Origin: an uncultured delta proteobacterium
GTDB taxonomy: Bacteria > Desulfobacterota > Syntrophia > Syntrophales > UBA2185
Assembly (NCBI GenBank): GCA_963729715.1
Contig: CAVSPA010000004.1
Location: 64,001-128,000, forward strand
DNA length: 64,000 nucleotides
Direction of reading: 5' to 3'
Positions 43,867 through 60,802 of this stretch are shown here, piece by piece (positions within the stretch are counted from its first letter, which is position 1; each line of letters begins with the position of its first letter). The position numbers and the translations under genes are program-made. Under the pieces are notes generated by a model. It was not told where the DNA came from and did no database searches. It saw only the letters and a program-made list of their open reading frames with translations.

Positions 43867-45072
43867 TCATTGAAAATACCATCGGCACTGGGGGAAAACT
43901 GGGCCGACTTTTTCTATAGGGAGCTGTCTCTTCGTTACCATATTCAGTACGTCAAAGATCATACAATCCTTATCGCCAAAGAAATTTTCTATCCCGTCAC
44001 CGAACCAGAGTGACAATCTATATGTGCCATTCAGCAATTGTGGATGTTCGACAATCACCTTCACTACGCCCTTGTAGCTGGGATTAACTACCTGGTCTTG
44101 AGGATGGTCGATCAGATTTGAGCCACAAATTGGATTGCCGAAGTAATCGCTTATGATGAAACCAAGAACGGGTATCTTAATTTCCTTCTCAAGCTGATAT
44201 TCAAAGACGATTTCTATAATATTACCTTTCTGTTGGACTTTTGCCCTGTTCAGAGGTTCGGCTTTAAACACTATTTCGTTCAAGCTGGATTGACCAAGAT
44301 AGAGATTGATTCCTTCCACCACACTGAGTGGACCTCTTGCATTTCCTTCCGAAAGAAAGATTGCCTTATTGCACAAGGAGGCAATCGCGTTCATGTTGTG
44401 ACTAACAAATAGCACCGTTCTTCCTTCTCTTGCTACATCGCCCATTTTCCCCAAACATTTTTTTTGAAATGATGTATCTCCCACCGCCAACACCTCATCG
44501 ACGAGGAGGATTTCCGGTTCAAGGTGTGCTGCTACTGCAAACGCAAGACGCATGTACATGCCAGAAGAATAATATTTGACAGGCGTATTAATGAATCTTT
44601 CTACTTCTGCAAAAGTTACAATTTCACTAAATTTGCGACTGATTTCATTACTGCTCATGCCGAGCACTGTCCCACTTAGATAGATATTCTCTTCTCCGGT
44701 GAGTTCGGAATGGAATCCGGTGCCAACTTCCAAAAGAGAACCGATTCTACCGCGAATTCGCGCACGCCCTTCCGTCGGTTCGGTAATACGGGAAAGAATT
44801 TTAAGAAGAGTACTTTTGCCCGCGCCGTTCCTCCCTATGATGCCAATTATCTCGCCGCGTTTGACTTCAAAGTTTACACCTCTTAACGCCCAGATGAATT
44901 CCGACGGGTTTACATCGTTTGAAACGGGTGGCGAGAAAGCGTTTCTGATTTGGCGAAAGGGCGCTGCAGCCAGATCTAAAAGAGCTTCCCGGAAGGTCTT
45001 GTCGCGGTCCTCGGGAGATCCGATACGGTACAGTTTTCCGAGATTTTCAACCTGAATAACGATGTCGTTCAT
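43867..45072 (-). CDS. wzt: Polysaccharide ABC transporter ATP-binding subunit with C-terminal extension
   Basis: GRNGAGKSTLL, YSSGM, LLVDE, FVSH. Confidence 0.92.
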   Translation of the reverse strand: MNDIVIQVENLGKLYRIGSPEDRDKTFREALLDLAAAPFRQIRNAFSPPVSNDVNPSEFIWALRGVNFEVKRGEIIGIIGRNGAGKSTLLKILSRITEPTEGRARIRGRIGSLLEVGTGFHSELTGEENIYLSGTVLGMSSNEISRKFSEIVTFAEVERFINTPVKYYSSGMYMRLAFAVAAHLEPEILLVDEVLAVGDTSFQKKCLGKMGDVAREGRTVLFVSHNMNAIASLCNKAIFLSEGNARGPLSVVEGINLYLGQSSLNEIVFKAEPLNRAKVQQKGNIIEIVFEYQLEKEIKIPVLGFIISDYFGNPICGSNLIDHPQDQVVNPSYKGVVKVIVEHPQLLNGTYRLSLWFGDGIENFFGDKDCMIFDVLNMVTKRQLPIEKVGPVFPQCRWYFQ

Positions 45073-45119
45073 ATTCTTACTGTGGGCATATTACGTGTTG
45101 CATCTCGTTCCTGGAATCT

Positions 45120-45245
45120 TAGTACATCATTTCATTATTAAGGTGTCATATCGACCGAAGGGAGATGTCTTTTAGTTTTACCTTCATATTAAGATTTCTC
45201 GCTGCCCCTTCGCGATGCTCAGGGCTTCGGCTCACCGAAATGACA
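45120..45245. repeat. REP/MITE-like intergenic element (same family as 25880)
   Basis: Shared 33-nt left segment; GTCATATCGACCGAAGGGAGA...AGATTTCTC...CGAAATGACA. Confidence 0.7.
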
Positions 45246-45261
45246 ATGATAGTATTGTGGG

Positions 45262-46098
45262 TTAGATGATATCGGCGAATCGCCGTTCCATTCGTGTGAA
45301 ATAAACAATCCCCATGATAAACAACGCAATGCTCACCGCTACTGAAATAACGAGGTCGCTCCAGAGGATGGGCGTGTTGAGAAGTGAAGATCGAAAGGCT
45401 GTGATCAGCCCGGCCATGGGGTTAAGGTTAATCAGCCATCGCCAACGCTCAGGAACGATGCTTGAAGGATAAATTACCGGTGTTGCGAAGAGCCAGAACT
45501 GGACAAGAAATGGAATGACGTATCGGAAATCCCGGTAGGCAACATTCAGTGCGGAAAGAATCATTCCAATTCCAAGGGTTGCTATAATGACTCCGAGCAT
45601 CAAAAGTGGAAGTAAGAAAAGACTCCACCCTGGATATATTCCGTAATAAAACATCATCACAATAAGAATAATAAAGGCGACAAAAAAATCGAGTAATCCG
45701 GATCCGAGGGATGCTGCCGGTATAATTATTCTCGGGAAATATACTTTTGATATTAAGTTGCTGCTTGCCAACACACTATTTCCCGCATTGCTGATCCCGT
45801 TACTGAAGAACTGCCAGGGTAGAAGAGCCGTGTAAACAAATATGGGGTAGGGAATATTATCCGATGGAATCTTTGCCAGCATGCCGAAGAAGATAGTAAA
45901 TACCACCATGCTCATGAACGGCTGCAGAATTGCCCATAACCCACCTAACACAGTCTGTTTGTAACGGACCTTTATATCGCGGATTGTTAAAAAATGTAAC
46001 AACTCGCGGTATCGCCACAGTTCCTTCCATTGCAGGGAAGACCAGAATTTTCTGGGTTCTATAATTGTGATGTCGGATTGATTATTTCCCATAGTCAT
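45262..46098 (-). CDS. wzm: Polysaccharide ABC transporter permease
   Basis: RDIKVRYKQTVLG.LW..LQP; KVYFPR; TPVIYP; NPM. Confidence 0.93.
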   Translation of the reverse strand: MTMGNNQSDITIIEPRKFWSSLQWKELWRYRELLHFLTIRDIKVRYKQTVLGGLWAILQPFMSMVVFTIFFGMLAKIPSDNIPYPIFVYTALLPWQFFSNGISNAGNSVLASSNLISKVYFPRIIIPAASLGSGLLDFFVAFIILIVMMFYYGIYPGWSLFLLPLLMLGVIIATLGIGMILSALNVAYRDFRYVIPFLVQFWLFATPVIYPSSIVPERWRWLINLNPMAGLITAFRSSLLNTPILWSDLVISVAVSIALFIMGIVYFTRMERRFADII

Positions 46099-46119
46099 TT
46101 CCCCGAATTAAAATCTCTT

Positions 46120-47526
46120 CTAACTGAGGGATTCATTTGCGACAACATTGTCTGCGGCAACCTCTATTGATGGAATCATGATAATCATGGCCGTCAAGAA
46201 CCAGAAAGGTTCCATGATACGGACGATAATGAAAGTATTAGTGCCGATGCCGTGGGTGACCATGGCAACAAATCCTGCAAGATAACCGAGCGAAAGACCG
46301 CTAAAAAGCGGGTCTGCGGTCCCCCTGTAGGTATGCAATGCATTCATATAGATGGAAAGAAGAAGAATGAAGAAAGTGAGAAATCCCAGGAGTCCTGTCT
46401 CGGCGAGCACCCGTGGATATTGCGCATCCAGAAAACGGTATCCCGTAATGCCATAGCCAAGTATCGGCTGACTGATAAAATCTTTTTCAAGAGCATCTTT
46501 CCAAGACTTAAGCCTGGCGGAAGTTGAGGTGTCAAGCCTTGTATTGCCGACGGTGATCTGTCCGGCTTCTCGCGGCTGAGTAAAAGTAAAAGATACCCTT
46601 TCTATAACACTTTTTGGCAAGATAAATGAGGATGCGAGAAAAATAATGATTAATGCGACAATAATGGGCCACTTTCTCTTACTAAAATAAAGCAGTGTCA
46701 TGACCATGGGAATAAGTGAAACCCAGGAGGCTCTGGAAAGTGTTGCGGCAAGGGAAATAAGGATTAAAAAGAAGAGGGTGCCCAAAAATATTTTTTGTTT
46801 TTTGGAGCGGCCATAGCCTAGTAAAAGACCCAGGACGATGGAGAGCATAAGAACAAGATAGCCCCCAAGCGTATTTGGTTCGCCTTCCGGGCCTTCAAAT
46901 GGTGCAGAGACGCGTCCACCGGCCGGTATTTGATAGATAGCAACTATGCAAATGACAAAGCAAACAAGGAGGATGGTAAACAGGAACCGCTCAATTTGTT
47001 TTTTCTCCTTGAGATGGTTTACGGCAATGAAGTATATGATAAAGTATTCAAAGTATTTCAAAAGAAAGAAGAATCCCGTGAGTCCTTTTACTCTTCCCAT
47101 CATATATCCAATGAGTGTTGAAATCAGGCAGACTATGAAATAGTATGTAATAGGTCCGTTTAGGGGCGTTCTGAGAAAGAGCCCTAATTCTTTCCTAATA
47201 GCTGTTCTCAGAAACCAGCTCAGTCCGATTATGACCAGGAGAAAGTCGTCCATGCGTAAGGTTAGCCCGCGTCCGCGGCCGGGCAATTCTGTCGGTTCTC
47301 CGATTATAAACTGCGGTCCGAGGAGCATGGAAACGATCAGGATATAGAGGGCGATTTCTGTATTGATAAAACTCACGATACCGATGATAACAGCGGCGAT
47401 TACCGCAAAGGCAAGGCCGGTTGACGCCTTCGCAATTAACAGCCCTCCCGCCATCGTTATTAGGAAGATCGTTATGAGGAATAATACGGTCTTTGGATCG
47501 ATAGCTGCTTGTGTGAGTCTATTCAT
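46120..47526 (-). CDS. O-antigen ligase / Wzy polymerase family protein
   Basis: Multi-TM; EPNTLGGY, TLSRASW, GYG, LAETGLLG. Confidence 0.85.
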   Translation of the reverse strand: MNRLTQAAIDPKTVLFLITIFLITMAGGLLIAKASTGLAFAVIAAVIIGIVSFINTEIALYILIVSMLLGPQFIIGEPTELPGRGRGLTLRMDDFLLVIIGLSWFLRTAIRKELGLFLRTPLNGPITYYFIVCLISTLIGYMMGRVKGLTGFFFLLKYFEYFIIYFIAVNHLKEKKQIERFLFTILLVCFVICIVAIYQIPAGGRVSAPFEGPEGEPNTLGGYLVLMLSIVLGLLLGYGRSKKQKIFLGTLFFLILISLAATLSRASWVSLIPMVMTLLYFSKRKWPIIVALIIIFLASSFILPKSVIERVSFTFTQPREAGQITVGNTRLDTSTSARLKSWKDALEKDFISQPILGYGITGYRFLDAQYPRVLAETGLLGFLTFFILLLSIYMNALHTYRGTADPLFSGLSLGYLAGFVAMVTHGIGTNTFIIVRIMEPFWFLTAMIIMIPSIEVAADNVVANESLS

Positions 47527-47569
47527 GTCGGTGGAATCTGATTGTTTGGTGTTTGATAGTCAAAGAACT

Positions 47570-48000
47570 GGATTCCCGCGTGCGCGGGAATGACACGGGT
47601 GGATGGATTCCCGCCGGAGCCTGCCCTCGAATGTATCAGTCGGGGGCGGGAATGACATTGGCGGATGTATTCGCGCTTACGACTGTGTGTAGTGAGCCTT
47701 CTTTGTCATTCCGGTGAACCGAAGGCCTGAACATGGTGAAGGGGCATGTGAGGAATCTTAAAGATCCCTCTCTTCGCTCTGGACAAAAATTTCTCCCTTC
47801 GGTCGAAATGACAGAAGGGGGGACGGCATGACAGACTTTTCTTTCTTGTCATTTCGAGTGCAGCGAGAAATCTTTTTCTCCTTCTCACCCCCTGGATGAA
47901 AGGGGGTCGGGTGGATTTTTACCCACTATCAGAAATCCCCTGTAGCCCCCTTTGTCAAAGGGGGCAGGAAGTAATGACAGAAGGGGGTCGAAATGACATA
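47570..48000. repeat. Mosaic cluster of palindromic repeats
   Basis: ATTCCC-N8-GGGAAT (47572-47591), 52-bp GGATTCCC..GGGAATGAC unit (47605-47656), GTCATTTCGA/TCGAAATGAC units, CCCCCTTTGTCAAAGGGGG hairpin. Confidence 0.75.
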
Positions 48001-48014
48001 GTCGAAACCGGTCT

Positions 48015-48203
48015 TTATTTCTTTCCCTCAGTGGCTCCTTTTTCTTGTTCATATACGCCTCTATCCGCGGAGTTATAGAATGTTTCAATAATAACAGAAA
48101 TGCTGCCGGTAAATGCGCTGAGTACAAGAGAAACGACTGCTATTACGAGCAGCCAGAAGAAAGTCCTTCTTCTTGTGAGGAAATCTCTCGCACGTCGCTT
48201 CAT
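48015..48203 (-). CDS. Small single-TM hypothetical protein
   Basis: Basic N-terminus plus hydrophobic helix (FFWLLVIAVVSLVLSAF); co-oriented between wzc and the ligase gene. Confidence 0.45.
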   Translation of the reverse strand: MKRRARDFLTRRRTFFWLLVIAVVSLVLSAFTGSISVIIETFYNSADRGVYEQEKGATEGKK

Positions 48204-48303
48204 TAGTTTCTCTTCTCGATCGGCGCGTCACTCACGGTGGTCGTTTGTTTCTGTGGGTATCGGGTGCGTATTTGTTCCGCGGCGTGAAAACTGAGAAGTG
48301 GAA

Positions 48304-51303
48304 TTAATTCTTCATTGTTCCATCAACAGGGAATAGCCGGGGCGCGTATACATAACCAAGCGTTCTCTTCAAATCGCGCTTTTTCTCTTTAACGTTGAAT
48401 ACCGCGTACCAGTCATCATCAAGGAAGTCCGCCTTGACCCTCTGTCCCGGTTGAAGCTGACTTCTTATCCGGGAGTCGATTGAACGGTCTGCCCTGACGT
48501 TGGTCTTGTCTTTCGCATACAGGATAACGCCCCAGTCCTTGTTATCGGCCGTCTTGGGAAGCGCCGCCTGCATGGGTATCGACTCCTTGGGAGGCGCTAA
48601 TTGTAAGGGTGTTGCCGGTGGCTGGCTGCTCTCAGCTACAGGTTTCTTTTCTTCTATGGATATTGGCTTTTCTTGAGGTTTTGTTTGCGTCGCACTTGCC
48701 GGCTGCTGCGTGTTCTCTTGAGAAGTTTTCTTTTCCTCACTGACAGGTTTTGGGGATTCACCCCAGGGCAAAATATTTTTTACATCGTATTGAATAACGC
48801 GGGTCTGAAACAGGATGCCGAGAATCAGGAATAAAAGAGCAAATAAGAAAATTACGATTTTCAATCCTGAAATTTTCGCTTCAGTTCTTTCTGGCGCTGG
48901 CTTCTGTGCCTCATCATGCTGCGTCGGTTTCGTTTCAACTTCGACCGCGGGCGCAGGTACAGCCATGGGTTCAGGTACGGGCGCAGCTACCGGTGCGGGT
49001 GCAGCTACAGAGGCAGGAGCGGGGGCAGCGGTAGGAGCAGGCTCTTCCTGCTTGACAGCCACTTTGGATACAATTGATTTGAGATAATCCGTTATCGTTT
49101 GAGGCAGCGCAGCGATCTTTTCTGCGAGCGATGGCTTTCGCAGTGTCTTATCACCGTAGTAGTAATAATACTTCTTGTCACGGTAAGCAAAATCAGGGCT
49201 GATATCCGCTTTTAAACCGTTGAGGACAACACCAAAAATTTTCGCACCCACATGGTCAAGCTGTGCCTTGGCCCGCTTGAGGGCGCCTCTGGCAATTTTT
49301 CCCACCTGATATACAATGATTGCGCCGTCTGCGACGGAACTCCATATCGATGCCTCGGTAGCGGCCAATACGGGAGGTGCATCTATCAGTATAATGTCAT
49401 ATTCCGAAGAGGCCTGCTTGATAAGTTCAGGCACGAGCTTTGAGTTGACGAGCTCGGCGGGATTGGGGGCCGCCGAGCCGCCGGTGATTATGTGGAGATT
49501 GTCCATACCGGGGGTCAGCATAATCTCATCCATGCTCATCTTGCCCGTTATAAAATCTGTGATTGTCCTGACAACACTCCTCCATTCATAGTTGCCTAAA
49601 ATTACATCGGCCAGTCCGGGCACAGGTTCGATGCCAAACAGCTTAGCTATGACGGCCCTCCTGAGGTCTCCTTCAATGAGGAGCACCTTGCTGCCGCCCT
49701 GAGCCATGGTTATGGCAAGATTGACGGCTACGGTAGTCTTGCCTTCCTCGGGTGAAGAACTCGTGAAAACTACCGACTTTATGCTCTTATCGAGATTCAG
49801 AAAATTAAGGTTTGTCCTGAGGGCCCTGTAATTTTCCGCCGAGGTTGATGAAGGCAGGAAGTGCGATATGAGCCTATTCGTTTTCTTTATAGTATCGTCA
49901 TCTGGTGTTTTAGAGTATTTGTCCTGAAGAGTCGCCTTGAGTTCATCATGGTTGACCTGCGGTATAATCCCCAGGACTCTTACGCCCAGAAAGTCTTCCA
50001 CTTCTTCGATGGCCTCGAATGATGTATCGAAGGTTTCCATGATGAACGCGAAGACAATGCCCATAATCAGTCCGATAATCAATCCGATAATTGTATGGGA
50101 AGTAACCTTGGGCGGATTGACAGGTGTTGTGGGTTCAAGGGCCGGCCTTACGACCTTTACCTCTTCTATCTTTTCCGCCTCTTGAATCAATGCCTCCTGA
50201 TACTTCTTTTGCAGCAGGGAATACACTTCCCTGTTAACGCCCGCCTCCCTCTCCAGTCTGACCAGTTCCAGACCTTTTTCCGGAAGCTTCCGGAGCTGCT
50301 CGTCCGTAGCGCCGATCTGCTGCTTTAAACTCCTGATGTTTGATTCCAGATACCTTTTCTGCGAGGACAATTGCGACCGCATGCTCGTGATTATTTCATG
50401 GGACTGATTCTTGATTTCGTGAATCTGAGGGAAGGCTTCTGTATATGTAAGAAGAAGGGTGTCCCTCTCGAGCATGAGCTGAACTAATTTGTCATTGAGG
50501 TTCTTATAGATCGGCGTTGCTTCCTCAAAATAGAAAGAGCTTTTTGATGTGAGAGGTTTCTCTTCGGCTGTCGCAAGGGCTTGTTCCACCGCACTGACCT
50601 TCTGAAGTGTTGACGTGTCAAGATCGTATTGGGCCTGGAGTTTGGATGATTGGGCGAGTGAGGCCGTGGACTGCGCGTCAATGGATATCAGTTTGCTGTT
50701 CTCTCTGTAATCCCGCACCTGATCTTCTGATTTGGCGACTTTCTCCCTCACGATGTTGAGCTGATTTTCTATAAATGTCTTGGCCTCGAATGTCCTCTTG
50801 TTGATATCGACCAGATGCTCTTCTTTATAGACCTGAGCGATCGTGTTGGCGAAACGTTGCGCAAACTTGGGGTCTTCAGATGTCACGTTTATGGTGATAA
50901 TATCGGTATTGCCTTCTTGTTCCGTTGTGACGTTAGCCTTAAGATCCAATATAACCCTGAGATATTCGCTATTGCTGCGTATCTGTTCGGAAGTAAGATT
51001 GGCCGGTATCAAATTGAGCTTTTTGGCAACTGACTCCAAGATAATGTAGCTCCTTATCACGGAAGCCTGCGTCTCCAGGTAATTGGTGGAAGACCACGGA
51101 AAAGTTTGTGAGTAGAGGCCGGTGAGTGAGCCGGTCTTTTCAATCTTGATGCTGGCGCTTGTTTTATATATGGGGAGAGGCTGTCCCAATAGGGCCCAGA
51201 CAAGACTGAAAAATGCCATCGACGCCGCTGTAAAGAGGACAATGAACTTCCGCTTTCTGACGGTGCGCCAGTAATCTCTCAGATTAAGATCATATTGGGC
51301 CAT
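48304..51303 (-). CDS. wzc: Wzc-type polysaccharide co-polymerase / tyrosine autokinase with long C-terminal extension
   Basis: Probable start MAQYDLNL after GGAGA; ENYRALRTN, SSSPEEGKTT, IEGDLRR, IDAPP, Tyr cluster YRDKKYYYYY. Confidence 0.9.
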   Translation of the reverse strand: MAQYDLNLRDYWRTVRKRKFIVLFTAASMAFFSLVWALLGQPLPIYKTSASIKIEKTGSLTGLYSQTFPWSSTNYLETQASVIRSYIILESVAKKLNLIPANLTSEQIRSNSEYLRVILDLKANVTTEQEGNTDIITINVTSEDPKFAQRFANTIAQVYKEEHLVDINKRTFEAKTFIENQLNIVREKVAKSEDQVRDYRENSKLISIDAQSTASLAQSSKLQAQYDLDTSTLQKVSAVEQALATAEEKPLTSKSSFYFEEATPIYKNLNDKLVQLMLERDTLLLTYTEAFPQIHEIKNQSHEIITSMRSQLSSQKRYLESNIRSLKQQIGATDEQLRKLPEKGLELVRLEREAGVNREVYSLLQKKYQEALIQEAEKIEEVKVVRPALEPTTPVNPPKVTSHTIIGLIIGLIMGIVFAFIMETFDTSFEAIEEVEDFLGVRVLGIIPQVNHDELKATLQDKYSKTPDDDTIKKTNRLISHFLPSSTSAENYRALRTNLNFLNLDKSIKSVVFTSSSPEEGKTTVAVNLAITMAQGGSKVLLIEGDLRRAVIAKLFGIEPVPGLADVILGNYEWRSVVRTITDFITGKMSMDEIMLTPGMDNLHIITGGSAAPNPAELVNSKLVPELIKQASSEYDIILIDAPPVLAATEASIWSSVADGAIIVYQVGKIARGALKRAKAQLDHVGAKIFGVVLNGLKADISPDFAYRDKKYYYYYGDKTLRKPSLAEKIAALPQTITDYLKSIVSKVAVKQEEPAPTAAPAPASVAAPAPVAAPVPEPMAVPAPAVEVETKPTQHDEAQKPAPERTEAKISGLKIVIFLFALLFLILGILFQTRVIQYDVKNILPWGESPKPVSEEKKTSQENTQQPASATQTKPQEKPISIEEKKPVAESSQPPATPLQLAPPKESIPMQAALPKTADNKDWGVILYAKDKTNVRADRSIDSRIRSQLQPGQRVKADFLDDDWYAVFNVKEKKRDLKRTLGYVYAPRLFPVDGTMKN

Positions 51304-51317
51304 TGCGCGTGATTCTC

Positions 51318-52508
51318 CTAAAACTGCAGAGCGGAAGGGTTTCTTAACCACTGATCCCTGAGGGGGGCAGGATATTGATACAAGTACTGCAAAAGAGGTG
51401 TCGTGTTGATGATGAATTCATTGATATCGCCTATAACCCTTCTCGGCACGTAAACAAGATCACCGTCTTTAAGCTTTATATTCTGGGACAGGTCCCCTTG
51501 CTTCAGAATTTGATCCAGGTTGGCGGATAGGATAATCGGCTTCCCTCCGCGCTCCTTGTATTCCCTTATTATCTTTATATCTGAATTTATTGCTATCAGG
51601 GTGTAACTCCCGGCATCAGCCATAGCTGCCAGGAGGTCAGGCGCATCCTTCAGCCTGTATATACCCGGCCTGTTGACCTCGCCGAAGACATACACCCTTT
51701 CACCGTAAAAGGGCAGTTCCGGAACGGTGACTATGTCGCCATCGTCTATGATTACATTTTGGGAAACGTCCCCTTTGAACATGGCATTATAAAGATTGAC
51801 CACGTACCTCTTACCCTTTCGGAGTATTTCCACATTTCTGAGATCAGCATTTCCCGGGCTAACGCCGGTGATACCAATGTCCTTGCCTGTTATCGGGCCG
51901 CCGGCAGACACGATGAGATCAAGAATCGTGGTCTTTCCAGTAAGAGGGTACTTTCCGGGACCGGATGTCCCCGTCGAAAGGACGTTGATCTGGCCGAAGA
52001 GCAGGGCTGTCTTACTTTTGTAATCTTTTACGATAACTTCAATTCGAGGATTCCTGATGTATTGTTTTAGTTGATTCGTCAGTATTTCTCTGACCTCGTT
52101 GACGGTGTGACCTGCAACGGGGATGTCATCACCGAACAAATAGGAGATCTTGCCCTCCTGTCTGACCACGACCGTGTAAGTATTCTGTTTGAAGCCTTCT
52201 TCGGTGCGGGCCGTTGTAATTGTGTATGGGATCCAGTAGTTGATCGTGAGGATATCACCCGGCCCTATAAGATATTCAGGCACGCCATGCCTTAGTGTAA
52301 AGACGCTGTTTTCCGTGACCTGGCTCATCTTCACGATTTCTTCCATTTCCTTCTGTTCAGCTAGGCGCTGCGCAGGCGTCACAACCCCGGATGTTTCAGA
52401 AAAAGTCTTGACAGGTATGCCGCGGGCCTCAAATGTGCAGGCAGATAAAAGCAGAGTTGCGAAGCACGAAATATATGCGAGGAGTTTGATTTTACCTATG
52501 TATAACAT
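51318..52508 (-). CDS. wza: Polysaccharide export lipoprotein (Wza/OPX) with SLBB domains
   Basis: Lipobox LSAC; YLIGPGDIL; VFGEVNRPG; LKDGDLVYVP. Confidence 0.9.
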   Translation of the reverse strand: MLYIGKIKLLAYISCFATLLLSACTFEARGIPVKTFSETSGVVTPAQRLAEQKEMEEIVKMSQVTENSVFTLRHGVPEYLIGPGDILTINYWIPYTITTARTEEGFKQNTYTVVVRQEGKISYLFGDDIPVAGHTVNEVREILTNQLKQYIRNPRIEVIVKDYKSKTALLFGQINVLSTGTSGPGKYPLTGKTTILDLIVSAGGPITGKDIGITGVSPGNADLRNVEILRKGKRYVVNLYNAMFKGDVSQNVIIDDGDIVTVPELPFYGERVYVFGEVNRPGIYRLKDAPDLLAAMADAGSYTLIAINSDIKIIREYKERGGKPIILSANLDQILKQGDLSQNIKLKDGDLVYVPRRVIGDINEFIINTTPLLQYLYQYPAPLRDQWLRNPSALQF

Positions 52509-52687: not shown

Positions 52688-54130
52688 TCAAGGCCTTTTT
52701 AATTTTTTTTCAGGTGACGGTAAAAAGCTGAAAATATGGGAAACGATCTCCCGTACACGGGCTGTATAGTATGATTTCAGGGTTACACCGTCCCTGACAC
52801 AAAGTCTTTGAAGAAGTATTTGGCGAGGCGGGAACAAAGTCCTGAATAAGAATTTGATCTTATCGGAGAGTGTTCTATTCATGGCCAGGTAAATAAAATA
52901 GCTGCTGCCCCGGATGCGGCGGTTGGTAGTCTGGAGTCTCAGGAAGAATCTTTCACCGAGAGATAAATCCGGCGGCGTCAGTTTCCTCGGGCTTTCTTCA
53001 GGTATAAACGCTCTTGCATAGGCCTTAACGATGGAGAGGCTGAGATAGACCAATCGGTCCAGATTAAAACGGCGGCTTTCTTCGACAAGTAAATCCCAAT
53101 CAATATTTTTTTCATAGGCTTTAAGGGCGTAGGATATATCCGTTATGAGTATGAGGCGATCGAAGGAGTGGCCTATCCTGAGGGCGTGTTCGCAGAGATA
53201 GATGATAAGGTGTTCGGGGCATAACATATATACGTCGGCATCTGCCACCCTCGCGGGAACCGCCTTTTCCCATATGCGCCCGATATCGACATGTTTGGCA
53301 AACATCGTTGCTGGCACTGAACTGTTTACTATGTGCCAGTGAACATGAAGATTTAAGGGGGAGCCATTTTCTTTTCGGTATTCGAGGCTGGCAAGATAGC
53401 CTTCCGGATTGTTTATGGCCCTCGCAACGGAACTGTCTCTTGCGATATATCCCTGAGAGGACAAGAGCTCATCGACATCATAGAGGTCAGTTTTCTTGAC
53501 CAGAATATCGATGTCTGACATTCCCCTCATCGCGATGGCGGGATAGATGTGTTCCGCAAGGGCTATGCCTTTAAGAACAATGCAGAGGATCCCGGATTCC
53601 TTAAGAAGGGTGAGGATACTTTTCAACTCACCGATGATGGAAAGGTTTCTTCTTAGATTGTTGTAATACTGTTCGGATAGCGCAGCTCTGACTGCCGGGG
53701 GCACGAGATGTTCCGCTTTGTTATTTTTTAAATTGTGAAATATTGTTTCGACAACGCCCTCCTGCCTCATCTTCACAACAATATAGTCCCAGTCGTACTC
53801 CGTGCTATCCTTTGCATACAAAGAGAGAGATTGATTTTTGGAATCCAACTTCTGTAACCTTTGCACAACTCCTCTATTTGTCATTCCGGGCTTGACTCGG
53901 AAATTGGAGCATACTTCTTGATAATACTGGATTCCCGCTGGAGCCGGTCCTCGAATGTCCTTATCGGGGACGGGAATGACAAAATTGCTGGTCTTAAGCA
54001 GTTCTGAAAAGGTCTCCTTCTGTGAGTCCTTATTAGGTAAGTCAAAAAGGAGACTTAGGATTAATTTGTCGCAATCTTGGCAGTTGATGGCAAAGCTCCG
54101 CTCTCTAAAGTCACGGCTTCTCGTAAACAT
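52688..54130 (-). CDS. Nucleotidyltransferase family protein (NTP_transf_5-like) containing an in-frame MITE
   Basis: LKGIALAEHIYP, RGMSDIDILV, LHVHW, YLCEH motifs. Confidence 0.85.
   Translation of the reverse strand: MFTRSRDFRERSFAINCQDCDKLILSLLFDLPNKDSQKETFSELLKTSNFVIPVPDKDIRGPAPAGIQYYQEVCSNFRVKPGMTNRGVVQRLQKLDSKNQSLSLYAKDSTEYDWDYIVVKMRQEGVVETIFHNLKNNKAEHLVPPAVRAALSEQYYNNLRRNLSIIGELKSILTLLKESGILCIVLKGIALAEHIYPAIAMRGMSDIDILVKKTDLYDVDELLSSQGYIARDSSVARAINNPEGYLASLEYRKENGSPLNLHVHWHIVNSSVPATMFAKHVDIGRIWEKAVPARVADADVYMLCPEHLIIYLCEHALRIGHSFDRLILITDISYALKAYEKNIDWDLLVEESRRFNLDRLVYLSLSIVKAYARAFIPEESPRKLTPPDLSLGERFFLRLQTTNRRIRGSSYFIYLAMNRTLSDKIKFLFRTLFPPRQILLQRLCVRDGVTLKSYYTARVREIVSHIFSFLPSPEKKLKRP
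53856..54016. mobile_element. 161-bp MITE-like element inserted in frame in the nucleotidyltransferase gene
   Basis: Imperfect TIRs AACCTTTGCACAACT / AGTTCTGAAAAGGTCTC; 7-bp direct repeat CTTCTGT at 53849-53855 and 54017-54023; internal GTCATTCC..GGAATGAC repeat. Confidence 0.75.
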
Positions 54131-54263: not shown

Positions 54264-54572
54264 ATGGAAGAGTTTTTGAAGGATATCGAACTTTTGTCAA
54301 GGAATACGGATTGTATTTTCAGGGAAGAGGAAGACGGGGCCTTTCTGTTCGATCCGGAAAGCGGGAATCTTAAATTTATCAATAGCATGGGCGTTAATAT
54401 CTATCAGCTCTGCGACGGTAAAATGACTGTGGGAGACATCACATCATTGGTAAGCGAAAATTATAAAGACATTTCGAGCAAGAAGATCGAGGACGATATA
54501 AAGGTTTTTTTGCAAGAGCTTGTAAAAATGGAGTTTTTAAAAAGAGAAGAAACCGGTCATGACGGGAAATAA
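54264..54572 (+). CDS. PqqD-family RiPP recognition element (ScmD-like)
   Basis: REEEDGAFLFDPESG...IN.MG..IYQLCDG.MTV.DI...DIKVFLQEL. Confidence 0.9.
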   Translation: MEEFLKDIELLSRNTDCIFREEEDGAFLFDPESGNLKFINSMGVNIYQLCDGKMTVGDITSLVSENYKDISSKKIEDDIKVFLQELVKMEFLKREETGHDGK

Positions 54573-55641
54573 TGCAGCGTATTCGTTAAACTCCATTTAT
54601 CTTTATCTTACGGACAGATGTAATCTGAGGTGCAGGCACTGCTGGATTGAACCTCTATATTATGAAGGCCGCAAAGACGACAGCACTGAATTTGACCTGA
54701 AATTTCTCAAAAAGGCGATTGAAGATGCGAAAGAGATTGGCCTTAACCGTGTTAAGCTGACAGGCGGCGAGCCTTTTTTGAGAAGAGACATACTTGATAT
54801 CATCGCGTATCTTCATGCTCAAAACATTACAGTGGATATAGAGACAAACGGCACCCTCATAGACAAGGAGATTTGCGCAGTTCTAAAAGCTAATGGCGTT
54901 AATCAGGTATCCGTCAGCCTTGACAGCATGACGGCAGAGCAGCATGAAACATTCCGCGGGGTCAAAGGTTGTTACCATGATGCCTTGAAAGGGCTTTCAC
55001 TGCTCACAGAAAGTGGCATAAACACTCAGCTCATAATGACCCTCTATAAGGAAAATATATCGGAGATTGAAAGGCTGGTTGATCTTTCTTCCCGGATGGG
55101 TGTCGGTTCTGTTAAGATAAACCCTGTCATGCCCACGGGGCGAGGCAAGAAATTTTTTGAAAAAGAAGAAAATGTTGAGTTCGGCGATCTAATAAAGATT
55201 GACAGATGGATTGAAGAAGAATTAGTGTCAAAATACAAAATTGATATACACTTTGATATCCCCATAGGTCTTAAGTCGCTTAAATGCATAAGAACGAGAC
55301 AATTGTTCGAGTGCAATATTGTAAATATAATCGGCATACTCTCCGACGGCACAATTTCCCTGTGCGGCATCGGCCAGACGGAGACTGCTCTTAATATGGG
55401 CAACATTGCGGTAGACGATATACGTGAAGTGTGGGCAAGTAATCCCATCCTGCAGAAATTGAGAAAGGACATACCGCGCAATTTAGAGGGCATATGCGGC
55501 CGCTGCATATTCAAGTTCAGATGCCGGGGGGCGTGCAGGGCCTGTGCATACGGCTTAACAGGAAGTCTTAATAGTCCCTTCTTTGTCTGCCGTGAGGCAT
55601 ATGAAAAGGGACTGTTTCTGGAATCCAGGATGATCAATTAA
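54559..55641 (+). CDS. Radical SAM/SPASM peptide maturase (SynChlorMet ScmF-like)
   Basis: YLTDRCNLRCRHCWIEP, TGGEP, ETNG; SPASM CGRCIFKFRCRGAC (Cx2Cx5Cx3C). Confidence 0.9.
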   Translation: MTGNNAAYSLNSIYLYLTDRCNLRCRHCWIEPLYYEGRKDDSTEFDLKFLKKAIEDAKEIGLNRVKLTGGEPFLRRDILDIIAYLHAQNITVDIETNGTLIDKEICAVLKANGVNQVSVSLDSMTAEQHETFRGVKGCYHDALKGLSLLTESGINTQLIMTLYKENISEIERLVDLSSRMGVGSVKINPVMPTGRGKKFFEKEENVEFGDLIKIDRWIEEELVSKYKIDIHFDIPIGLKSLKCIRTRQLFECNIVNIIGILSDGTISLCGIGQTETALNMGNIAVDDIREVWASNPILQKLRKDIPRNLEGICGRCIFKFRCRGACRACAYGLTGSLNSPFFVCREAYEKGLFLESRMIN

Positions 55642-55660: not shown

Positions 55661-56698
55661 ATGACTCGCAGCTATGACTTGATTAAAGATAATAATAAGG
55701 GAGAGGGAGACGGGCCTCTTCGCCTGAGTGACATTGAAAACCTTAAGTCCCAGGAAGGCAAATCATACGAGACTCCGGAAGAGCGTTCAGCGCAGGATGA
55801 AAAAGAGGTTGATAATGCCGAGAGACTCTATGCGGGCTTCCAGAAATACATGCGCGATGTCAGGGAGGAGGTTAAGACCAATCAACCCATTGAGCTTGAG
55901 GCGGCATTCTCGCTGATTGAGCAGCTCACGAAATCAAGAAGTATGATGGAAAGAGTTTATCAGTTAACCAATACCTTTTACCATGGTAAGGACTACTATA
56001 TCTCTCATCCCGTAAATACAATGATATATGCCGTAAAGGTCGGGCTGCGGATGGGATATTCCCGTGACAAACTCAAAGAACTCGCTATGGCAGCACTTCT
56101 TCACGATGTAGGAATGTTTATGATTCCTGAAAATATCATAACCAAGGAAGGGGCATTGACCGAATCTGAATTGGCTCTGATAAAGAGACATCCTGAGCTC
56201 GGGAAAAATCTCCTGTTCAAGTTTAAGGATCAGTTACCCTGGCTTGCCCGCGCCGTTCATGAACATCAGGAAAGAGAAAATGGCAAGGGATATCCGAGGG
56301 GAATTAAAGGAGATGACATTGCGGAGTACGCGAAGATTATAGGCATATGTGATTCGTATGAGGCGATGACGCACAACCGTCCCCACAAGAAGGCTATCAT
56401 GCAATTTACCTCAGTGAGGGAATTGATAGAAACAAAGGACCTTCTGTTTCCCACAAAGATACTTAGAGCATTTCTTGAGGAGTTATCCCTGTATCCGATA
56501 GGAAGTTGCGTAAAATTGAATAACAATGCAATTGGAAGGGTCATTGACACCAATAAAGACCAGCCCATGAAACCGATAATCAAACTCCTTTTTGACGGCC
56601 ACGGGAATGCAGTGACTGACGAAAGGATCATAGACTTGAAAGAGAATACTGTATTGAATATTCTCGGCGGCGTGTCAGATGACGAATTGCCAGGCTAA
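55661..56698 (+). CDS. HD-GYP domain protein (cyclic-dinucleotide phosphodiesterase-like)
   Basis: LLHDVG, KRHP..G, HQERENGKGYP, DSYEAM..RP. Confidence 0.9.
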   Translation: MTRSYDLIKDNNKGEGDGPLRLSDIENLKSQEGKSYETPEERSAQDEKEVDNAERLYAGFQKYMRDVREEVKTNQPIELEAAFSLIEQLTKSRSMMERVYQLTNTFYHGKDYYISHPVNTMIYAVKVGLRMGYSRDKLKELAMAALLHDVGMFMIPENIITKEGALTESELALIKRHPELGKNLLFKFKDQLPWLARAVHEHQERENGKGYPRGIKGDDIAEYAKIIGICDSYEAMTHNRPHKKAIMQFTSVRELIETKDLLFPTKILRAFLEELSLYPIGSCVKLNNNAIGRVIDTNKDQPMKPIIKLLFDGHGNAVTDERIIDLKENTVLNILGGVSDDELPG

Positions 56699-57598
56699 AT
56701 GGAAGAACTGATTCTCTCCATAGCGGACCTTGCCATTGCCGTTCGTGCGGAGAAACACATAAAAGTTTTATTAGAACCTTTAACTAAACTCTTCAGCGGA
56801 TTTCTAAATGATGCCGGTAAACCAGCCGCGTTCCTGAATTTAACTTACGATCGTCTCCGTACATATCCGAACTTTAAAGACATGACTGTCAATGTGCTTG
56901 CGGGAAACTGCGGGGAAAGCAACGAATTGATTAATCAGGTGGGGAAAGTTTACCCGATATCAAGAGATTCTATAGTCGTCGGGTATTTAAATGGATGCCT
57001 CGCGTATAATCCGTCATCCAGTGAGGCCTGTCTGCTTCTCTTCAGGTCGCATGATCAGAACAATTTCACGGCAACTCTTCATAAGATGCTGTTCATCTTT
57101 ATTTCTTTCGTCCTGGGTGAAAGAAACAGATTCATGGTGCACGGTGCAGGAATAGGGGAGAAACAGGGTGGGGGAGGCTTTCTCTTCCTCGGCGATTCAG
57201 GTGCGGGAAAAACAACCGTTGCGGGTTTTGCCGGTGTGGATGCAGTGCTTTCGGATGACGCTCCCGTTATCGGCAAAGAAGACGGCGTTTACAACATATA
57301 TTCATCACCCTTCAGCCAAGTAAATTTGTTTGACGAAAGATCAAGCGATTACTTCCGGAAGAAGGTTCAATTAAGGAAGCTTTTGTTCTTAAATAAGGCA
57401 GATGAGATTGCGGTAACGGCGCGGCAACGACATTCCGCCCTGACGGAAATATTAACATCGCACGTGCATTCGTTTGATCTGATGGACCGGGACTTGAGAA
57501 TAGGTGCTTTTAACTTTTGCCATGACCTATGTTACAGCATACCTGCGTATGACCTCTATTTTCAGGAGAATAATAAATTCTGGGATGCTTTGAACTAA
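56699..57598 (+). CDS. HPr-kinase-related P-loop protein (ScmC-like)
   Basis: VHGAGI...LFLGDSGAGKTT...LSDD.P...SPF. Confidence 0.8.
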   Translation: MEELILSIADLAIAVRAEKHIKVLLEPLTKLFSGFLNDAGKPAAFLNLTYDRLRTYPNFKDMTVNVLAGNCGESNELINQVGKVYPISRDSIVVGYLNGCLAYNPSSSEACLLLFRSHDQNNFTATLHKMLFIFISFVLGERNRFMVHGAGIGEKQGGGGFLFLGDSGAGKTTVAGFAGVDAVLSDDAPVIGKEDGVYNIYSSPFSQVNLFDERSSDYFRKKVQLRKLLFLNKADEIAVTARQRHSALTEILTSHVHSFDLMDRDLRIGAFNFCHDLCYSIPAYDLYFQENNKFWDALN

Positions 57599-57625: not shown

Positions 57626-57994
57626 TTAGCCGGCGCCTCCCGCCTGACATCCTCCCGCAGCGGCGCTGCCAGCCGTACACGTGCCTCCGGCGACACTGCC
57701 AGAGTTGCAACCACTGTTTCCGGCGGCGCTGCCGGATTGACATTGACCACCGGCAGCAGTACTGCCGGCATTACATTTGCTTGACGTAGGAGCGCTGCCT
57801 GTATTGCAATTGCTTGATGCGACACTGCCGGCTTGACATTGCCCGCCGGAGGCAGTGGCTCCCGAGTTGCACTGCTGTTGAGGAGATCCTCCTGCCTGGC
57901 ATTGGCTTGGCCCTTGAGCGTGAGCGACCCCGCCGCCAAGATCAAGAATTTGAGGAGGTTCATAAGGGAGCTTGAATTTGGATTTCACGTGCAT
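57626..57994 (-). CDS. RiPP precursor peptide with YxxP leader and nine C-x-x-G repeats
   Basis: GGAGGG RBS; leader PYEPPQILDLG; core of 10-11-aa Gly/Ser/Ala/Gln-rich repeats each starting C-x-x-G; directly after a rSAM/SPASM gene. Confidence 0.85.
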   Translation of the reverse strand: MHVKSKFKLPYEPPQILDLGGGVAHAQGPSQCQAGGSPQQQCNSGATASGGQCQAGSVASSNCNTGSAPTSSKCNAGSTAAGGQCQSGSAAGNSGCNSGSVAGGTCTAGSAAAGGCQAGGAG

Positions 57995-59114
57995 ATCCCT
58001 CCTGTTTCTTTTGTGACTTCATTACATCTAAGCTGTATGGGTATCCATTGCCTTTGTAGATCCTGTAGCAGGACATGGGATCAACCGTAAAAACAGAGCC
58101 AGAGAGCTCATAAGACACAGCAGGACATCCGCCGATACAGAGTGATTTGTATCCGCAGCCGCTGCATTCCTCAATATCGTCCAGGGAAACGGATGCCCTT
58201 CTTCTCATTTTGGAAAAAATGGGCGACGAAGCCCATATTTCCTGAAAATCCGTTTCCCCGATGTGGCCGGCCTTGAAATCCCACAACCTGTCACATGGAA
58301 CAACCCAGCCGTCGGGCCTGACGGTACACTTCTGGATTCCCCCTCCGCAGCCAAACAGCCCGTTCGTACATCCCGGATTGTCCCGGTCCCCTATCTTCTG
58401 AAGCTTCTCGAAGCCTTTAAAAAAGTTTCCCATGTCGAGGATCGTCCCGATTACAAAATTACCGTACGTATTTCTCAAGCGCTCTAATTTGTGCGTTAAC
58501 GCCCTTCTCTGAGAATTGGAAAGAGTGAGGTTGGGAAGATGACATACCGCGTTGCCGAGCGGCAGTAGTTCATTAAATTTCACGGCCGTCAAACCGAGGC
58601 TCTTCCCGAGAATAATAATATCTTCTATGTCCTGATAATTGTTCTTCGTGACCGTGGTGTAAGTGGAGACGTGTCTGTTATGCTTTAAAAGATTTTCGAT
58701 GCCGCGAATCGTTCGATCAAAACTGCCATTTCCCCTTTGCTTGTCATGCACGGCGGGTGATGACCCGTCGAGACTGACGACGACGCTGAACAGTTTCTTT
58801 AGCTCGGAAATCCGCCGCGATGCTTGTTCGTCGATAAGGGTGGCGTTTGTATTCAGGCCGTAATGGAAGTGGTGTTTTTCTATTTCATACAAAATGGAAA
58901 AGACATCTTCCCTCATGAAGGGCTCGCCGCCGCTGATCCAGAGTGTAAAAACCTTCAACTCGGCAAGTCTCCTGATAAACTTTATCCATTCGTCTGTCGT
59001 CAGGTCGCTCGTTGCATTGCGCGTCGGATAGACGTTGCAATGCTTGCATGCCAGATTACACTTATTGGTAATGGCGATGAAAACATCTAATGGAGCCGAA
59101 AAACAGTTCTTCAT
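57960..59114 (-). CDS. Radical SAM/SPASM peptide maturase (SynChlorMet ScmE-like)
   Basis: ITNKCNLACKHC, SGGEP, VSLDG; CGGG..C.VRPDGWVVPC; CSGCGYKSLCIGGC. Confidence 0.9.
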   Translation of the reverse strand: MKNCFSAPLDVFIAITNKCNLACKHCNVYPTRNATSDLTTDEWIKFIRRLAELKVFTLWISGGEPFMREDVFSILYEIEKHHFHYGLNTNATLIDEQASRRISELKKLFSVVVSLDGSSPAVHDKQRGNGSFDRTIRGIENLLKHNRHVSTYTTVTKNNYQDIEDIIILGKSLGLTAVKFNELLPLGNAVCHLPNLTLSNSQRRALTHKLERLRNTYGNFVIGTILDMGNFFKGFEKLQKIGDRDNPGCTNGLFGCGGGIQKCTVRPDGWVVPCDRLWDFKAGHIGETDFQEIWASSPIFSKMRRRASVSLDDIEECSGCGYKSLCIGGCPAVSYELSGSVFTVDPMSCYRIYKGNGYPYSLDVMKSQKKQEGYAREIQIQAPL

Positions 59115-59518
59115 GACGAAATGATCAGCCCCTTTCGCTTAAAGGCCATGAGGGTGAGTACGATGTCCCTTTTCGCGGCATCCTGCCCCACATCAAAACG
59201 ACCGGTAATTTCCTCTACCATATTATCGACACCGTTGGCACCGTTGCACAGGTTCCAGATATCAGCAGCAACAGCGTTTAACTTCAGCGTATCTGAGTTT
59301 TTCCTCGTATCCGTAAGGATCGTGTAGCTATCTTCTTTTCTCAGCGAGACGTCAGGATGTCTGGCAGGACTGGCGCTCAGGATTTCCTTCACTTCCATTG
59401 AATTCCAGGTGTATCGCAGATAGTCGACCATGCCAAATGACCGCACGGAGCCAGTAGCCGGCAGGAGAATACCTGCGCCAAATAATACGGACATAAAATT
59501 TCTTCTCGATGTATCCAC
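59111..59518 (-). CDS. PqqD-family RRE protein with N-terminal twin-arginine-like signal
   Basis: MDTSRRNFMSVLFGAGILL; C-terminal LNAVAADIWNLCNG...MVEEITGRFDV....AKRD. Confidence 0.8.
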   Translation of the reverse strand: MDTSRRNFMSVLFGAGILLPATGSVRSFGMVDYLRYTWNSMEVKEILSASPARHPDVSLRKEDSYTILTDTRKNSDTLKLNAVAADIWNLCNGANGVDNMVEEITGRFDVGQDAAKRDIVLTLMAFKRKGLIISS

Positions 59519-59564: not shown

Positions 59565-60359
59565 TTATAATGAATCCTTTACCACCTTTTTTACCAAGTC
59601 CGCACTAATGGTCTTTTGTTTTGTGCTGGAGGCAATCAAAAGTGCCAGATCACAGACATTGTTTATCTTCCTCGGCACGCCTTGGGAATACAGGTATATT
59701 TCTTCTATAGAGTCGGGAGGAAATATCCCGTTGGTCAGTCCCGCTCTCTCCATTCTGTAAACTATGTATTTTGCCGTCTCGTCGGCATTGAGTGGATTCA
59801 GATGGAATCTTATGGCGATCCTCTGATCGAGTTGTTTAAATTGCCTTATCAGGTCCTTCAGCTCCGGTTGTCCGATGAGAACGAATGTCATCAGGAACTT
59901 ATCGTTCAACTGAAAGTTCAGGAGCAAGCGAATCTCTTCGAAGGTATCGGTGTGTATGAGCTGTGCCTCATCGATGATGAGCAGAGTGGTCCTGTTTTTC
60001 CTGACATTTTCGAGCAGCCGCGTATTTAATATGGCGAGAAGCTCCGTCTTTGAATTAGTCCTGACATTCAGGCCAATCTGATAGAGCACCTCCTTCAGGA
60101 AGTCCAGCGGCTCGAGCGACGGGTTTGTTATCAATCCGATCTCAAAATCCTTTTCGGGAAGCTGCTGGATGAAAACCCTGCTGAGGAGAGTCTTTCCGCT
60201 TCCTATTTCGCCCGTAAGCAGGGCTGCCCCTTTTCTCCTCTTCACGGCATAGACTAGCCTGGCGAGGGCCTCGACGTGCTCATGTGAGTAGTACATGAAC
60301 TCCGGATCAGGTACATTTTCAAACGGGAATTTCTTGAAGCCCCAGTATTCTAAATACAT
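59565..60359 (-). CDS. ExeA/GspA-like AAA ATPase (EPS-locus type)
   Basis: MYLEYWGFKKFPF..PDP; GEIGSGKT; IIDEAQ; LIGQPEL; QGVPRKIN. Confidence 0.9.
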   Translation of the reverse strand: MYLEYWGFKKFPFENVPDPEFMYYSHEHVEALARLVYAVKRRKGAALLTGEIGSGKTLLSRVFIQQLPEKDFEIGLITNPSLEPLDFLKEVLYQIGLNVRTNSKTELLAILNTRLLENVRKNRTTLLIIDEAQLIHTDTFEEIRLLLNFQLNDKFLMTFVLIGQPELKDLIRQFKQLDQRIAIRFHLNPLNADETAKYIVYRMERAGLTNGIFPPDSIEEIYLYSQGVPRKINNVCDLALLIASSTKQKTISADLVKKVVKDSL

Positions 60360-60802
60360 TTCATCAACCCATCAATTGCCATATAGATCTCTGAAAAACA
60401 GAGCCTGTACTGAAATATTGAAAGTTTGTAGGGATCCTTAATGTCCCCGTATTCTTCATTATAATCCGGAGAAAATGATTTGAGACGATGAATCTTAGCC
60501 TCCGCTTCCGGGTACTTCTCGACGATTATTTTCTTGTGGATACCCTCCATGACGATGATCATATCTGCCTGGGAGACCATGTCTTCCGTCAATAGCTTTG
60601 AATGGTGACCGGCGCCATCGAGACCGTGCTCATCCAGTATTTCAACGGCTTTCGGATCGGCAGGCATGCCATTCATGTCGGTGACGGCGGCAGAGTAAAC
60701 CTCGATACCGGGTTTTTTGTCCTTTTTCAGCCTTTCTATGAGAATCCTTTCCGCCATGAAGCTTCTGACTATATTGGCAGTGCAGACAAATAAAATTTTC
60801 AT
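60350..60802 (-). CDS. wzb: Low-molecular-weight protein-tyrosine phosphatase (Wzb-like)
   Basis: FVCTANIVRS (CX5R), DIKDPY. Confidence 0.85.
   Translation of the reverse strand: MKILFVCTANIVRSFMAERILIERLKKDKKPGIEVYSAAVTDMNGMPADPKAVEILDEHGLDGAGHHSKLLTEDMVSQADMIIVMEGIHKKIIVEKYPEAEAKIHRLKSFSPDYNEEYGDIKDPYKLSIFQYRLCFSEIYMAIDGLMKCI

Follow-up and report, generated by a model that had tools for sequence, protein, structure and literature searches.

A divergent SynChlorMet-type RiPP cassette with a putatively Tat-tagged RRE inside a bacterial polysaccharide locus

We analysed a 64,000-nucleotide stretch of DNA (the window) and found that a 122-residue open reading frame in it (57626..57994, minus strand) is, by homology and linkage, almost certainly the substrate of a SynChlorMet-type RiPP cassette lying inside a polysaccharide locus. 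The cassette and its precursor model are already catalogued (SynChlorMet, TIGR04248-52), and on homology the window precursor is a new divergent member. What is new is a branch of the cassette in which a predicted Tat-tagged RRE stands in place of the protease and exporter. This RRE, encoded upstream of the precursor and beyond the interval that the original prediction covered, is the most unusual part of the locus.

The precursor had been described as a leader followed by nine periodic C-x-x-G units, and reanalysis of the frame reproduced this: 122 residues, a YEPPQI leader motif and nine CxxG units. AGGAGG lies 4 nt upstream of its ATG, and a search of the genome found no second ORF of this type. 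Alignments place the leader at residues 1-26 (57917..57994, minus strand), with YEPPQI at 11-16 and an A-H-A end at 24-26 where cleavage is predicted. Repeat analysis divides the core (57629..57916, minus strand) into nine units, each 10-11 residues long and of the form C-x-x-G-small-x-[A/P]; a conserved C-x-x-G-G-S-P (57881-57901, minus strand) opens the series. The Cys residues, at positions 32, 42, 53, 63, 74, 85, 96, 106 and 116, have exactly the spacings first reported (10, 11, 10, 11, 11, 11, 10, 10); C-x-x-G occurs in 9/9 units and is directly followed by Ser in 6/9, in agreement with the "usually then S" of the original prediction. From core composition, the chance of Gly at +3 for all nine Cys is 1.8e-6, and the arrangement arose in 1 of 200,000 shuffles. 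The reported lack of aromatic and acidic residues in the core is true of this peptide and fails as a family trait, homologues having D, E, Y, F and W. AlphaFold, given the precursor with 110 sequences, modelled the leader confidently and left the core disordered (pTM 0.19, pLDDT <50 in 88/122 residues), with no solenoid. A promoter scan returned 8 sites against 10.4 in shuffles, that is, no excess, and terminator-like sites numbered 11 against 6.7 +/- 3.0.

A database entry for the same DNA from another assembly (P0002) has a frameshift near the gene end, so that an unrelated tail stands in place of the last CxxG units. In run X1, possibly the source sample, a contig covers 57535-58041 without difference or gap, and because it is identical across the gene it supports the window's reading frame over that of P0002.

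A single-sequence search with the precursor gave 13 matches, some named from Syntrophus/Syntrophales, and a profile search gave 568 at E<=0.001 among 50%-identity clusters, a few of them spurious (among the best 150 of the 568, a few are unrelated repetitive proteins). Of the profile matches listed, 137 proteins pass a filter for the leader motif, a length of <=170 aa and >=3 CxxG. In these the Cys number varies from 3 to 12. Y11 and P14 are invariant in 110 aligned members. This supports the earlier view of the leader as a lasso-type YxxPx(I/L) one and of the peptide as a RiPP-type precursor, as do the neighbouring genes, two for RREs and two for radical SAM/SPASM enzymes. Gly stands at +3 from 770/806 Cys in the 137 leader-bearing homologues and from 336/341 in 43 distinct genomic precursors, and 583/669 Cys intervals in the filtered set are of 10 or 11 residues. 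The unit C-x-x-G-small-x-[A/P] is in register with the upstream Cys: in precursors of cassettes with the Tat-tagged RRE (Tat-type), +6 is Ala or Pro in 206/218 units. CxxGG[ST]P occurs in 31/31 Tat-type precursors vs 2/47 from cassettes with a protease (protease-type). An odd Cys count does not hold across the family (of the 137 homologues, 76 have an odd and 61 an even number, p=0.23), and we rejected the argument from it as a family trait. The core, earlier described as unusually long, is of ordinary length in a family whose cores reach 125 residues with 12 Cys. One family member, P0036, is a 265-aa protein with 21 Cys and 17 CxxG.

The precursor profile matches 46/301 class genomes, mostly next to above-cut-off ScmE genes, and near-identical precursors also adjoin such genes. 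The ScmA model TIGR04252 has its best-scoring place in the genome at the precursor ORF (13.4 bits, cut-off 35); at E<=5 it matches 37/53 family members, the best at 32.8, none above the cut-off of 35. Judged by profile, the precursor is homologous to ScmA but not its equivalog.

Two convergent arms flank the precursor. The minus-strand arm runs phosphatase, AAA ATPase, RRE-2, ScmE-like enzyme, precursor; the plus-strand arm runs RRE-1, ScmF-like enzyme, HD protein, ScmC-like kinase, with a nucleotidyltransferase and polysaccharide genes beyond. The ScmE-like radical SAM/SPASM enzyme, E' (57960..59114, minus strand; TIGR04250 241 bits, cut-off 400), belongs to a divergent clade with eight SPASM Cys and is about 29-34% identical to canonical ScmE; the 3' end of its gene overlaps the precursor start by 35 nt. 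Its ScmF-like counterpart, F' (54559..55641, plus strand; TIGR04251 347 bits, cut-off 400), has seven SPASM Cys plus one extra. RRE-1 (54264..54572, plus strand; TIGR04248 50 bits, cut-off 100) is an ordinary, ScmD-like RRE and the predicted cytoplasmic partner of the radical SAM enzymes. An HD-domain, HD-GYP-like protein (55661..56698, plus strand; Pfam HD_5) recurs in the cassettes by co-occurrence, and beside it lies the gene for a ScmC-like, HPr-kinase-like P-loop protein, a predicted peptide kinase (56699..57598, plus strand; TIGR04249 24 bits, cut-off 125). The NTP_transf_5 nucleotidyltransferase (52688..54130, minus strand; Pfam 184 bits) is a predicted tailoring enzyme. At the head of the precursor operon, profile matches identify an AAA ATPase (TIGR03015-like, below cut-off) and a low-molecular-weight tyrosine phosphatase (59565..60802, minus strand), which probably belong to the surrounding polysaccharide system. 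Profiles place exopolysaccharide genes at 43867..52508 (minus strand): wza, wzc, wzy-like, wzm and a wzt-like ABC ATPase, the last read from sequence.

The five SynChlorMet models (TIGR04248 ScmD, TIGR04249 ScmC, TIGR04250 ScmE, TIGR04251 ScmF, TIGR04252 ScmA) are the top NCBIfam matches for the corresponding window genes. Like SynChlorMet, the window cassette combines a Cys/Gly precursor with an RRE, a ScmC-like protein and a pair of radical SAM/SPASM enzymes. The two differ in that all five scores of the window genes are below cut-off and E', which has one more cluster Cys, branches as a clade of its own; the window also has a second, Tat-tagged RRE and has neither protease nor ABC exporter.

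Several observations concern the locus and its relatives at large. The HD-GYP-like gene (55661-56698) accompanies both cassette types, near wza/wzc, which hints at control shared with polysaccharide production. Among the polysaccharide genes, two frames read from sequence are a third radical-SAM-like ORF (35032-36027) and, on the opposite strand, a transposase-like ORF (29671-30804) that breaks the cluster beside a short methyltransferase-like ORF. After the E' gene of locus L172 (G064:C78), the sole match to the precursor profile is a short leader-like frame, 26 aa open, which lies near the contig end and may be a truncated gene or an assembly edge. Some cassettes are dispersed, with precursors, enzymes and Tat-RRE on different contigs (L085/L086 in G118; L102/L103/L173 in G014). 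Apparent kinase-protease fusions, a signal-peptidase-like domain plus kinase in a 510-570 aa open frame, occur at L145 (G066), L151 (G176), L141 (G029) and L146 (G076). Protease-type cassettes of family f9 (L092 (G082:C8), L093 (G155:C84), L147, L152, L154) contain as many as six precursors, a good number of which have a separate kinase gene directly behind them; these peptides have extra non-CxxG Cys and up to 17 Cys each. Enzyme pairs also mix: compared with the window, L090, L095, L164, L166 and L167 show that E+F, E+F' and E'+F' can go with one precursor type, and such mixed pairings form a ready-made set of comparisons from which the reaction of each enzyme could be assigned.

Where RRE-2 is missing, the sister cassettes have an S24/S26 signal-peptidase-like gene, often together with an ABC exporter. 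We compiled 61 cassette rows (regions retrieved around known matches and merged by genome, with G170 split in two): 33 have Tat-RRE only, 17 protease plus ABC exporter, 10 protease only, one neither and none both. In the retrieved DNA of the 33 Tat-RRE rows there was no signal-peptidase-like protease and no ABC exporter. In the window genome the cassette peptidase profile had no match, and the locus has no such peptidase or exporter. The ScmC-like kinase is present in 26/33 Tat-type and 27/27 protease-type rows, a ScmE-type enzyme in 28/33 and 25/27, and the nucleotidyltransferase in 19/33 Tat-type rows. By genome, a ScmE match was found in 60/301 of the class, and a hand count over these, a less selected sample than the rows (thresholds 1e-20, 1e-30), gave 25 Tat-only, 28 protease-only, two both and five neither; two of the last, G014 and G026, do have Tat-RREs, of a weaker kind. 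In G170 the two types lie on separate contigs, and in G161 a fragment of the protease lies elsewhere. The leader end follows the same division, A-[YHFQ]-A being found in 27/29 Tat-type vs 0/44 protease-type precursors; of the two misses, one comes from a parsing offset and does have A-H-A.

Both cassette types occur within each of four host families (f6, f12, f13, f16). Ten loci from other families of the phylum comprise one Tat-type, two protease plus ABC, six protease-only and one with both (G467), where Tat-RRE and protease plus ABC lie within 20 kb as two adjacent cassettes. In a quick ScmE tree, in which E' is a separate clade, the Tat label needs four changes, two of them forced by strong branches. 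The Fisher p for exclusivity is inflated because the rows are not independent and the independent switches are few (2-4), and the leader traits of Tat-type cassettes may reflect shared ancestry. Some protease cassettes had neither ABC exporter nor Tat-RRE in the retrieved DNA (L094, L144, L150, L158, L194, L195, L197, L198, L200, L201). With the ABC exporter missing from 10 protease cassettes of the class, and from 6/10 phylum loci as well, an unlinked exporter may serve all cassettes.

RRE-2 (59111..59518, minus strand; Pfam PqqD) has a PqqD-fold domain of lasso-B1 type whose closest structures are lasso B1-leader complexes. After a strong Shine-Dalgarno sequence and a GTG, its N-terminus reads S-R-R-N-F-M followed by a 13-residue uncharged stretch, a twin-arginine, Tat-like segment (about 59456-59518), and then comes an extra, amphipathic-looking helix (residues 28-48). 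A TatFind-like rule of our own is passed by 32/32 distinct RRE-2 homologues vs 0/60 other RREs, on a background of 108/3817 genome ORFs (2.8%). Homologues picked by the RRE domain alone pass in 30/30 cases, and two further passers scored as ordinary RREs in domain-only BLAST. Among database homologues 73/86 pass, the 13 misses having no N-terminus, as expected of partial or wrongly started gene calls. At 29/33 loci there is a start ahead of the RR motif with a Shine-Dalgarno-like site in front of it. The database gene call for RRE-2 itself, P0160, starts at the Met after this motif; gene callers that start RRE-2 past the RR motif set an annotation trap, hiding the Tat-like signal. Within the RR-x-F/L motif, which lies inside the translated frame, the second Arg is kept in 32/32, the first position is Arg or Lys (28/4), and Phe/Leu is found in 31/32. 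Tat signals tolerate such changes, the second Arg being fixed, the first replaceable by Lys and the Phe position hydrophobic (PMC6708511), and since the variation in RRE-2 follows these rules it counts in favour of Tat.

On the RRE-2 set the curated Tat profiles gave nothing above cut-off: TIGR01409 matched 1/14 (16.4 vs 16.7) and PF10518 matched 2/21, below cut-off. The Rieske anchor model TM_PetC gave weak matches in 7/21. An A-x-A follows the hydrophobic stretch in only 5/73 homologues; in some members (G014, G026) a cleavable-looking A-x-A ends the segment. Because the Tat profiles stay below cut-off and most members have no A-x-A, the segment is read as a putative uncleaved, Rieske-like anchor, a role that an uncleaved Rieske-type Tat signal can serve (PMC13673990). 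The genome has a TatC, a single signal peptidase I and four matches of the TatA/B type; TatC is not discriminating (31/32 Tat-type vs 25/28 other genomes). Of the pocket residues described in PMC13381572, RRE-2 homologues keep the Tyr-binding Asp (112/114) and the strand Asn (113/114). The RRE-1 class has the Asp in 18/18 and the Phe in 16/18. The Phe that divides the pocket is Thr or Ala in 78/114 Tat-RREs, window RRE-2 included, and as it is usually missing, leader binding by RRE-2 may be weaker or absent.

We tentatively propose a pathway of cross-linking, phosphorylation, Tat hitch-hiker export and leader removal, our best explanation, though as a whole we put it at slightly less than even odds. 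In the cytoplasm, RRE-1 would bind the leader at YEPPxI. One radical SAM enzyme, F' being the likelier, would join each Cys sulfur to the Gly alpha-carbon at i+3, and the result would be a string of nine four-residue sactionine rings in line; the other radical SAM enzyme would perform a separate, oxidative step. The kinase would then phosphorylate Ser/Thr, and the nucleotidyltransferase would extend the phosphate. The best candidate phosphosite is the Ser of the conserved CxxGGSP unit, given the analogy with LppK (PMC13381572) and the 31/31 conservation of CxxGG[ST]P. Finally, the modified precursor would be passed to Tat-tagged RRE-2 and cross the inner membrane as a signal-less passenger. 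RRE-2 would stay anchored (its signal presumably uncleaved in the window's clade) and offer the A-H-A of the leader to housekeeping signal peptidase I, freeing in the periplasm a core of roughly 96 residues, probably an envelope or matrix component. The Tat-RRE route would replace the dedicated protease and ABC exporter of the sister cassettes.

For the cross-linking step we mildly favour radical-SAM Cys(i)-Gly(i+3) thioethers in the precursor core. The near-invariant Gly at +3 together with free Cys parity points to one intra-unit event, most simply a thioether from Cys-S to Gly-C-alpha. The earlier proposal of one modification per repeat survives in part: it fits the free parity and the Cys-Gly sactionine precedent of StsB, and the odd count is lost to it as an argument. 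E' has eight SPASM Cys, the extra one (C263) being found in 10/10 members of the E' clade vs 0/44 canonical ScmE, which have seven; the spacing in E' matches that of MftC and anSME. F' has an extra C329 in 9/11 homologues besides its seven SPASM Cys. The StsB model scores 130 and 122 of 625 bits for the two enzymes. Consecutive four-residue sactionine rings are described for streptosactin/GggB (PMC13361665), and StsA/StsB offers Cys-Gly sactionines made by an MftC-like enzyme (PMC10288494). In CteB and SkfB, both of which form thioethers, Aux I is an open site, and anSME is fully ligated and oxidative (PMC6231123). The eight-Cys E' misfits the open-site picture of thioether formers, so F' is the better thioether candidate here.

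The same eight Cys of E' (10/10) are the first point for a rather unlikely but serious alternative in which the modification of the repeats is something other than Cys-Gly(i+3) sactionines: E', like the fully ligated, oxidative anSME-type enzymes (PMC6231123), might oxidise Cys or backbone, or a thioether might run to +4, to +6 or between units, with Gly serving only as a turn. NCBIfam agrees to the extent that it puts the WgkB, AhbD and MftC models above StsB for E', and the +6 Ala/Pro of 206/218 Tat-type units is in register with the upstream Cys. Set against this, Gly at +3 is the sole near-invariant partner (96-99%), canonical ScmE serving the same precursor family has the seven-Cys pattern, an MftC-like enzyme such as StsB can form Cys-Gly sactionines (PMC10288494), and the best solved-structure match is SkfB, weakly. 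It is still more improbable that the Cys are not radical-SAM substrates at all, with the core a repeat mini-protein held together by disulfides or metal and the real modifications made by the kinase and nucleotidyltransferase. Disulfides could form after periplasmic export; even so, the family has no bias towards even Cys numbers (76 odd, 61 even), ScmE-type enzymes are present in 28/33 and 25/27 rows, and AlphaFold did not order the core (the 88/122 residues with pLDDT <50, weak evidence).

Hitch-hiker Tat export on RRE-2 with leader removal by a housekeeping signal peptidase may well take place, and we put it forward as a working proposal. An export-signal-like tag found where sister cassettes have a protease, and often a transporter, suggests that RRE-2 carries the peptide out of the cytoplasm. 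In LPP peptides the RRE LppB presents the leader to a signal-peptidase-like enzyme and cleavage is RRE-dependent (PMC13381572). Against the pathway, signal peptidase I would find no membrane-spanning stretch in the leader. RRE-2 might also be a Tat substrate travelling alone, the peptide leaving by an unlinked exporter, or by Wzm/Wzt after glycan attachment, and RRE-2 on the periplasmic face presenting the leader to signal peptidase I or acting as a receptor or immunity factor. This would explain the Tat motif just as well, and likewise the A-x-A that ends the leader and the loss of a dedicated protease, and a wzm gene lies within the window locus while 10/27 protease cassettes have no linked ABC exporter. 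We nevertheless hold it unlikely: an ABC exporter was found in 0/33 Tat-type rows vs 17/27 others, and wzm was in the retrieved DNA, whose flanks are limited, only for the window genome. Less likely again, the RR-hydrophobic segment could serve as a cytoplasmic tether, holding the modifying enzymes at the membrane, and not as a Tat signal. The curated profiles below cut-off, the clear A-x-A past the hydrophobic stretch in just 5/73 and the amphipathic-looking helix that comes next (residues 28-48) would suit a tether, but a tether needs neither an invariant second Arg nor Phe/Leu two residues on, the cleavable-looking A-x-A at the segment end in G014 and G026 speaks against it, and it leaves the missing protease and exporter unexplained.

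Several known systems resemble parts of what we propose. LPP (Popov et al. 2026, PMC13381572) shares with the window a YxxP leader, a discrete RRE, an HPr-kinase-like enzyme, an NTP transferase and polysaccharide loci, and with the protease-type sister cassettes also a SpI-like peptidase and often an ABC exporter. It differs in that radical SAM, CxxG repeats and Tat do not figure in the accessible text of PMC13381572 (the terms Tat, arginine, radical and SAM are absent from it), and the window locus is without a dedicated SpI-like peptidase and MsbA-like exporter. StsA/StsB, as described in PMC10288494, is like the window in its Cys-Gly alpha-thioethers, MftC-like enzyme and discrete RRE; StsA and streptosactin, as far as described, have two or three rings (a hairpin in StsA), one enzyme and no kinase, against nine tandem units and two enzymes in the window. 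In Tat hitch-hiking, one subunit with a twin-arginine signal carries a signal-less partner (PMC6708511, PMC13673990, PMC10924467); the hitch-hikers described there are enzyme heterodimers, unlike the proposed RRE-peptide pair, and the accessible text of the 2026 Tat review makes no mention of RiPP or PqqD. Lasso peptides share the leader motif and the B1-type RRE fold. We rejected a lasso peptide because the core has no Asp/Glu and the cassette no B2 peptidase or cyclase; PF13471 (B2-type) has only a partial match on another contig, and the nearest Asn-synthase match lies about 35 kb from the cassette, among polysaccharide genes. Double-glycine/C39 processing was likewise rejected, GG not being conserved in the leaders (two C39 matches in the genome, in 257- and 270-aa frames, are unlinked), as was a PEP-CTERM/exosortase link, the window genome having no exosortase match.

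Our literature searches, with subscription journals largely outside their coverage, found no study of SynChlorMet and no report of a Tat-tagged RRE or of Tat-RiPP export. The Precord spreadsheet had no match for the system terms; its PDF supplement may show this enzyme group. SynChlorMet is widespread in this class of anaerobes (the 60/301 genomes with a ScmE match), and the window locus supplies a substrate together with the grammar of its repeats and a set of specific predicted sites, making the chemistry directly testable. It is possible, at a confidence below that given to the export step, that an RRE doubles here as the Tat carrier of a phosphorylated nine-ring poly-sactionine mini-protein, whose leader it then shows to a housekeeping signal peptidase. 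If so, the cassette would need neither protease nor transporter, and the preference of Tat for folded cargo could act as quality control for complete cross-linking. RREs would gain a role as export adaptors and Tat a new class of cargo, and the module would be a portable one, sending YxxP-tagged modified peptides to the periplasm with traceless leader removal.
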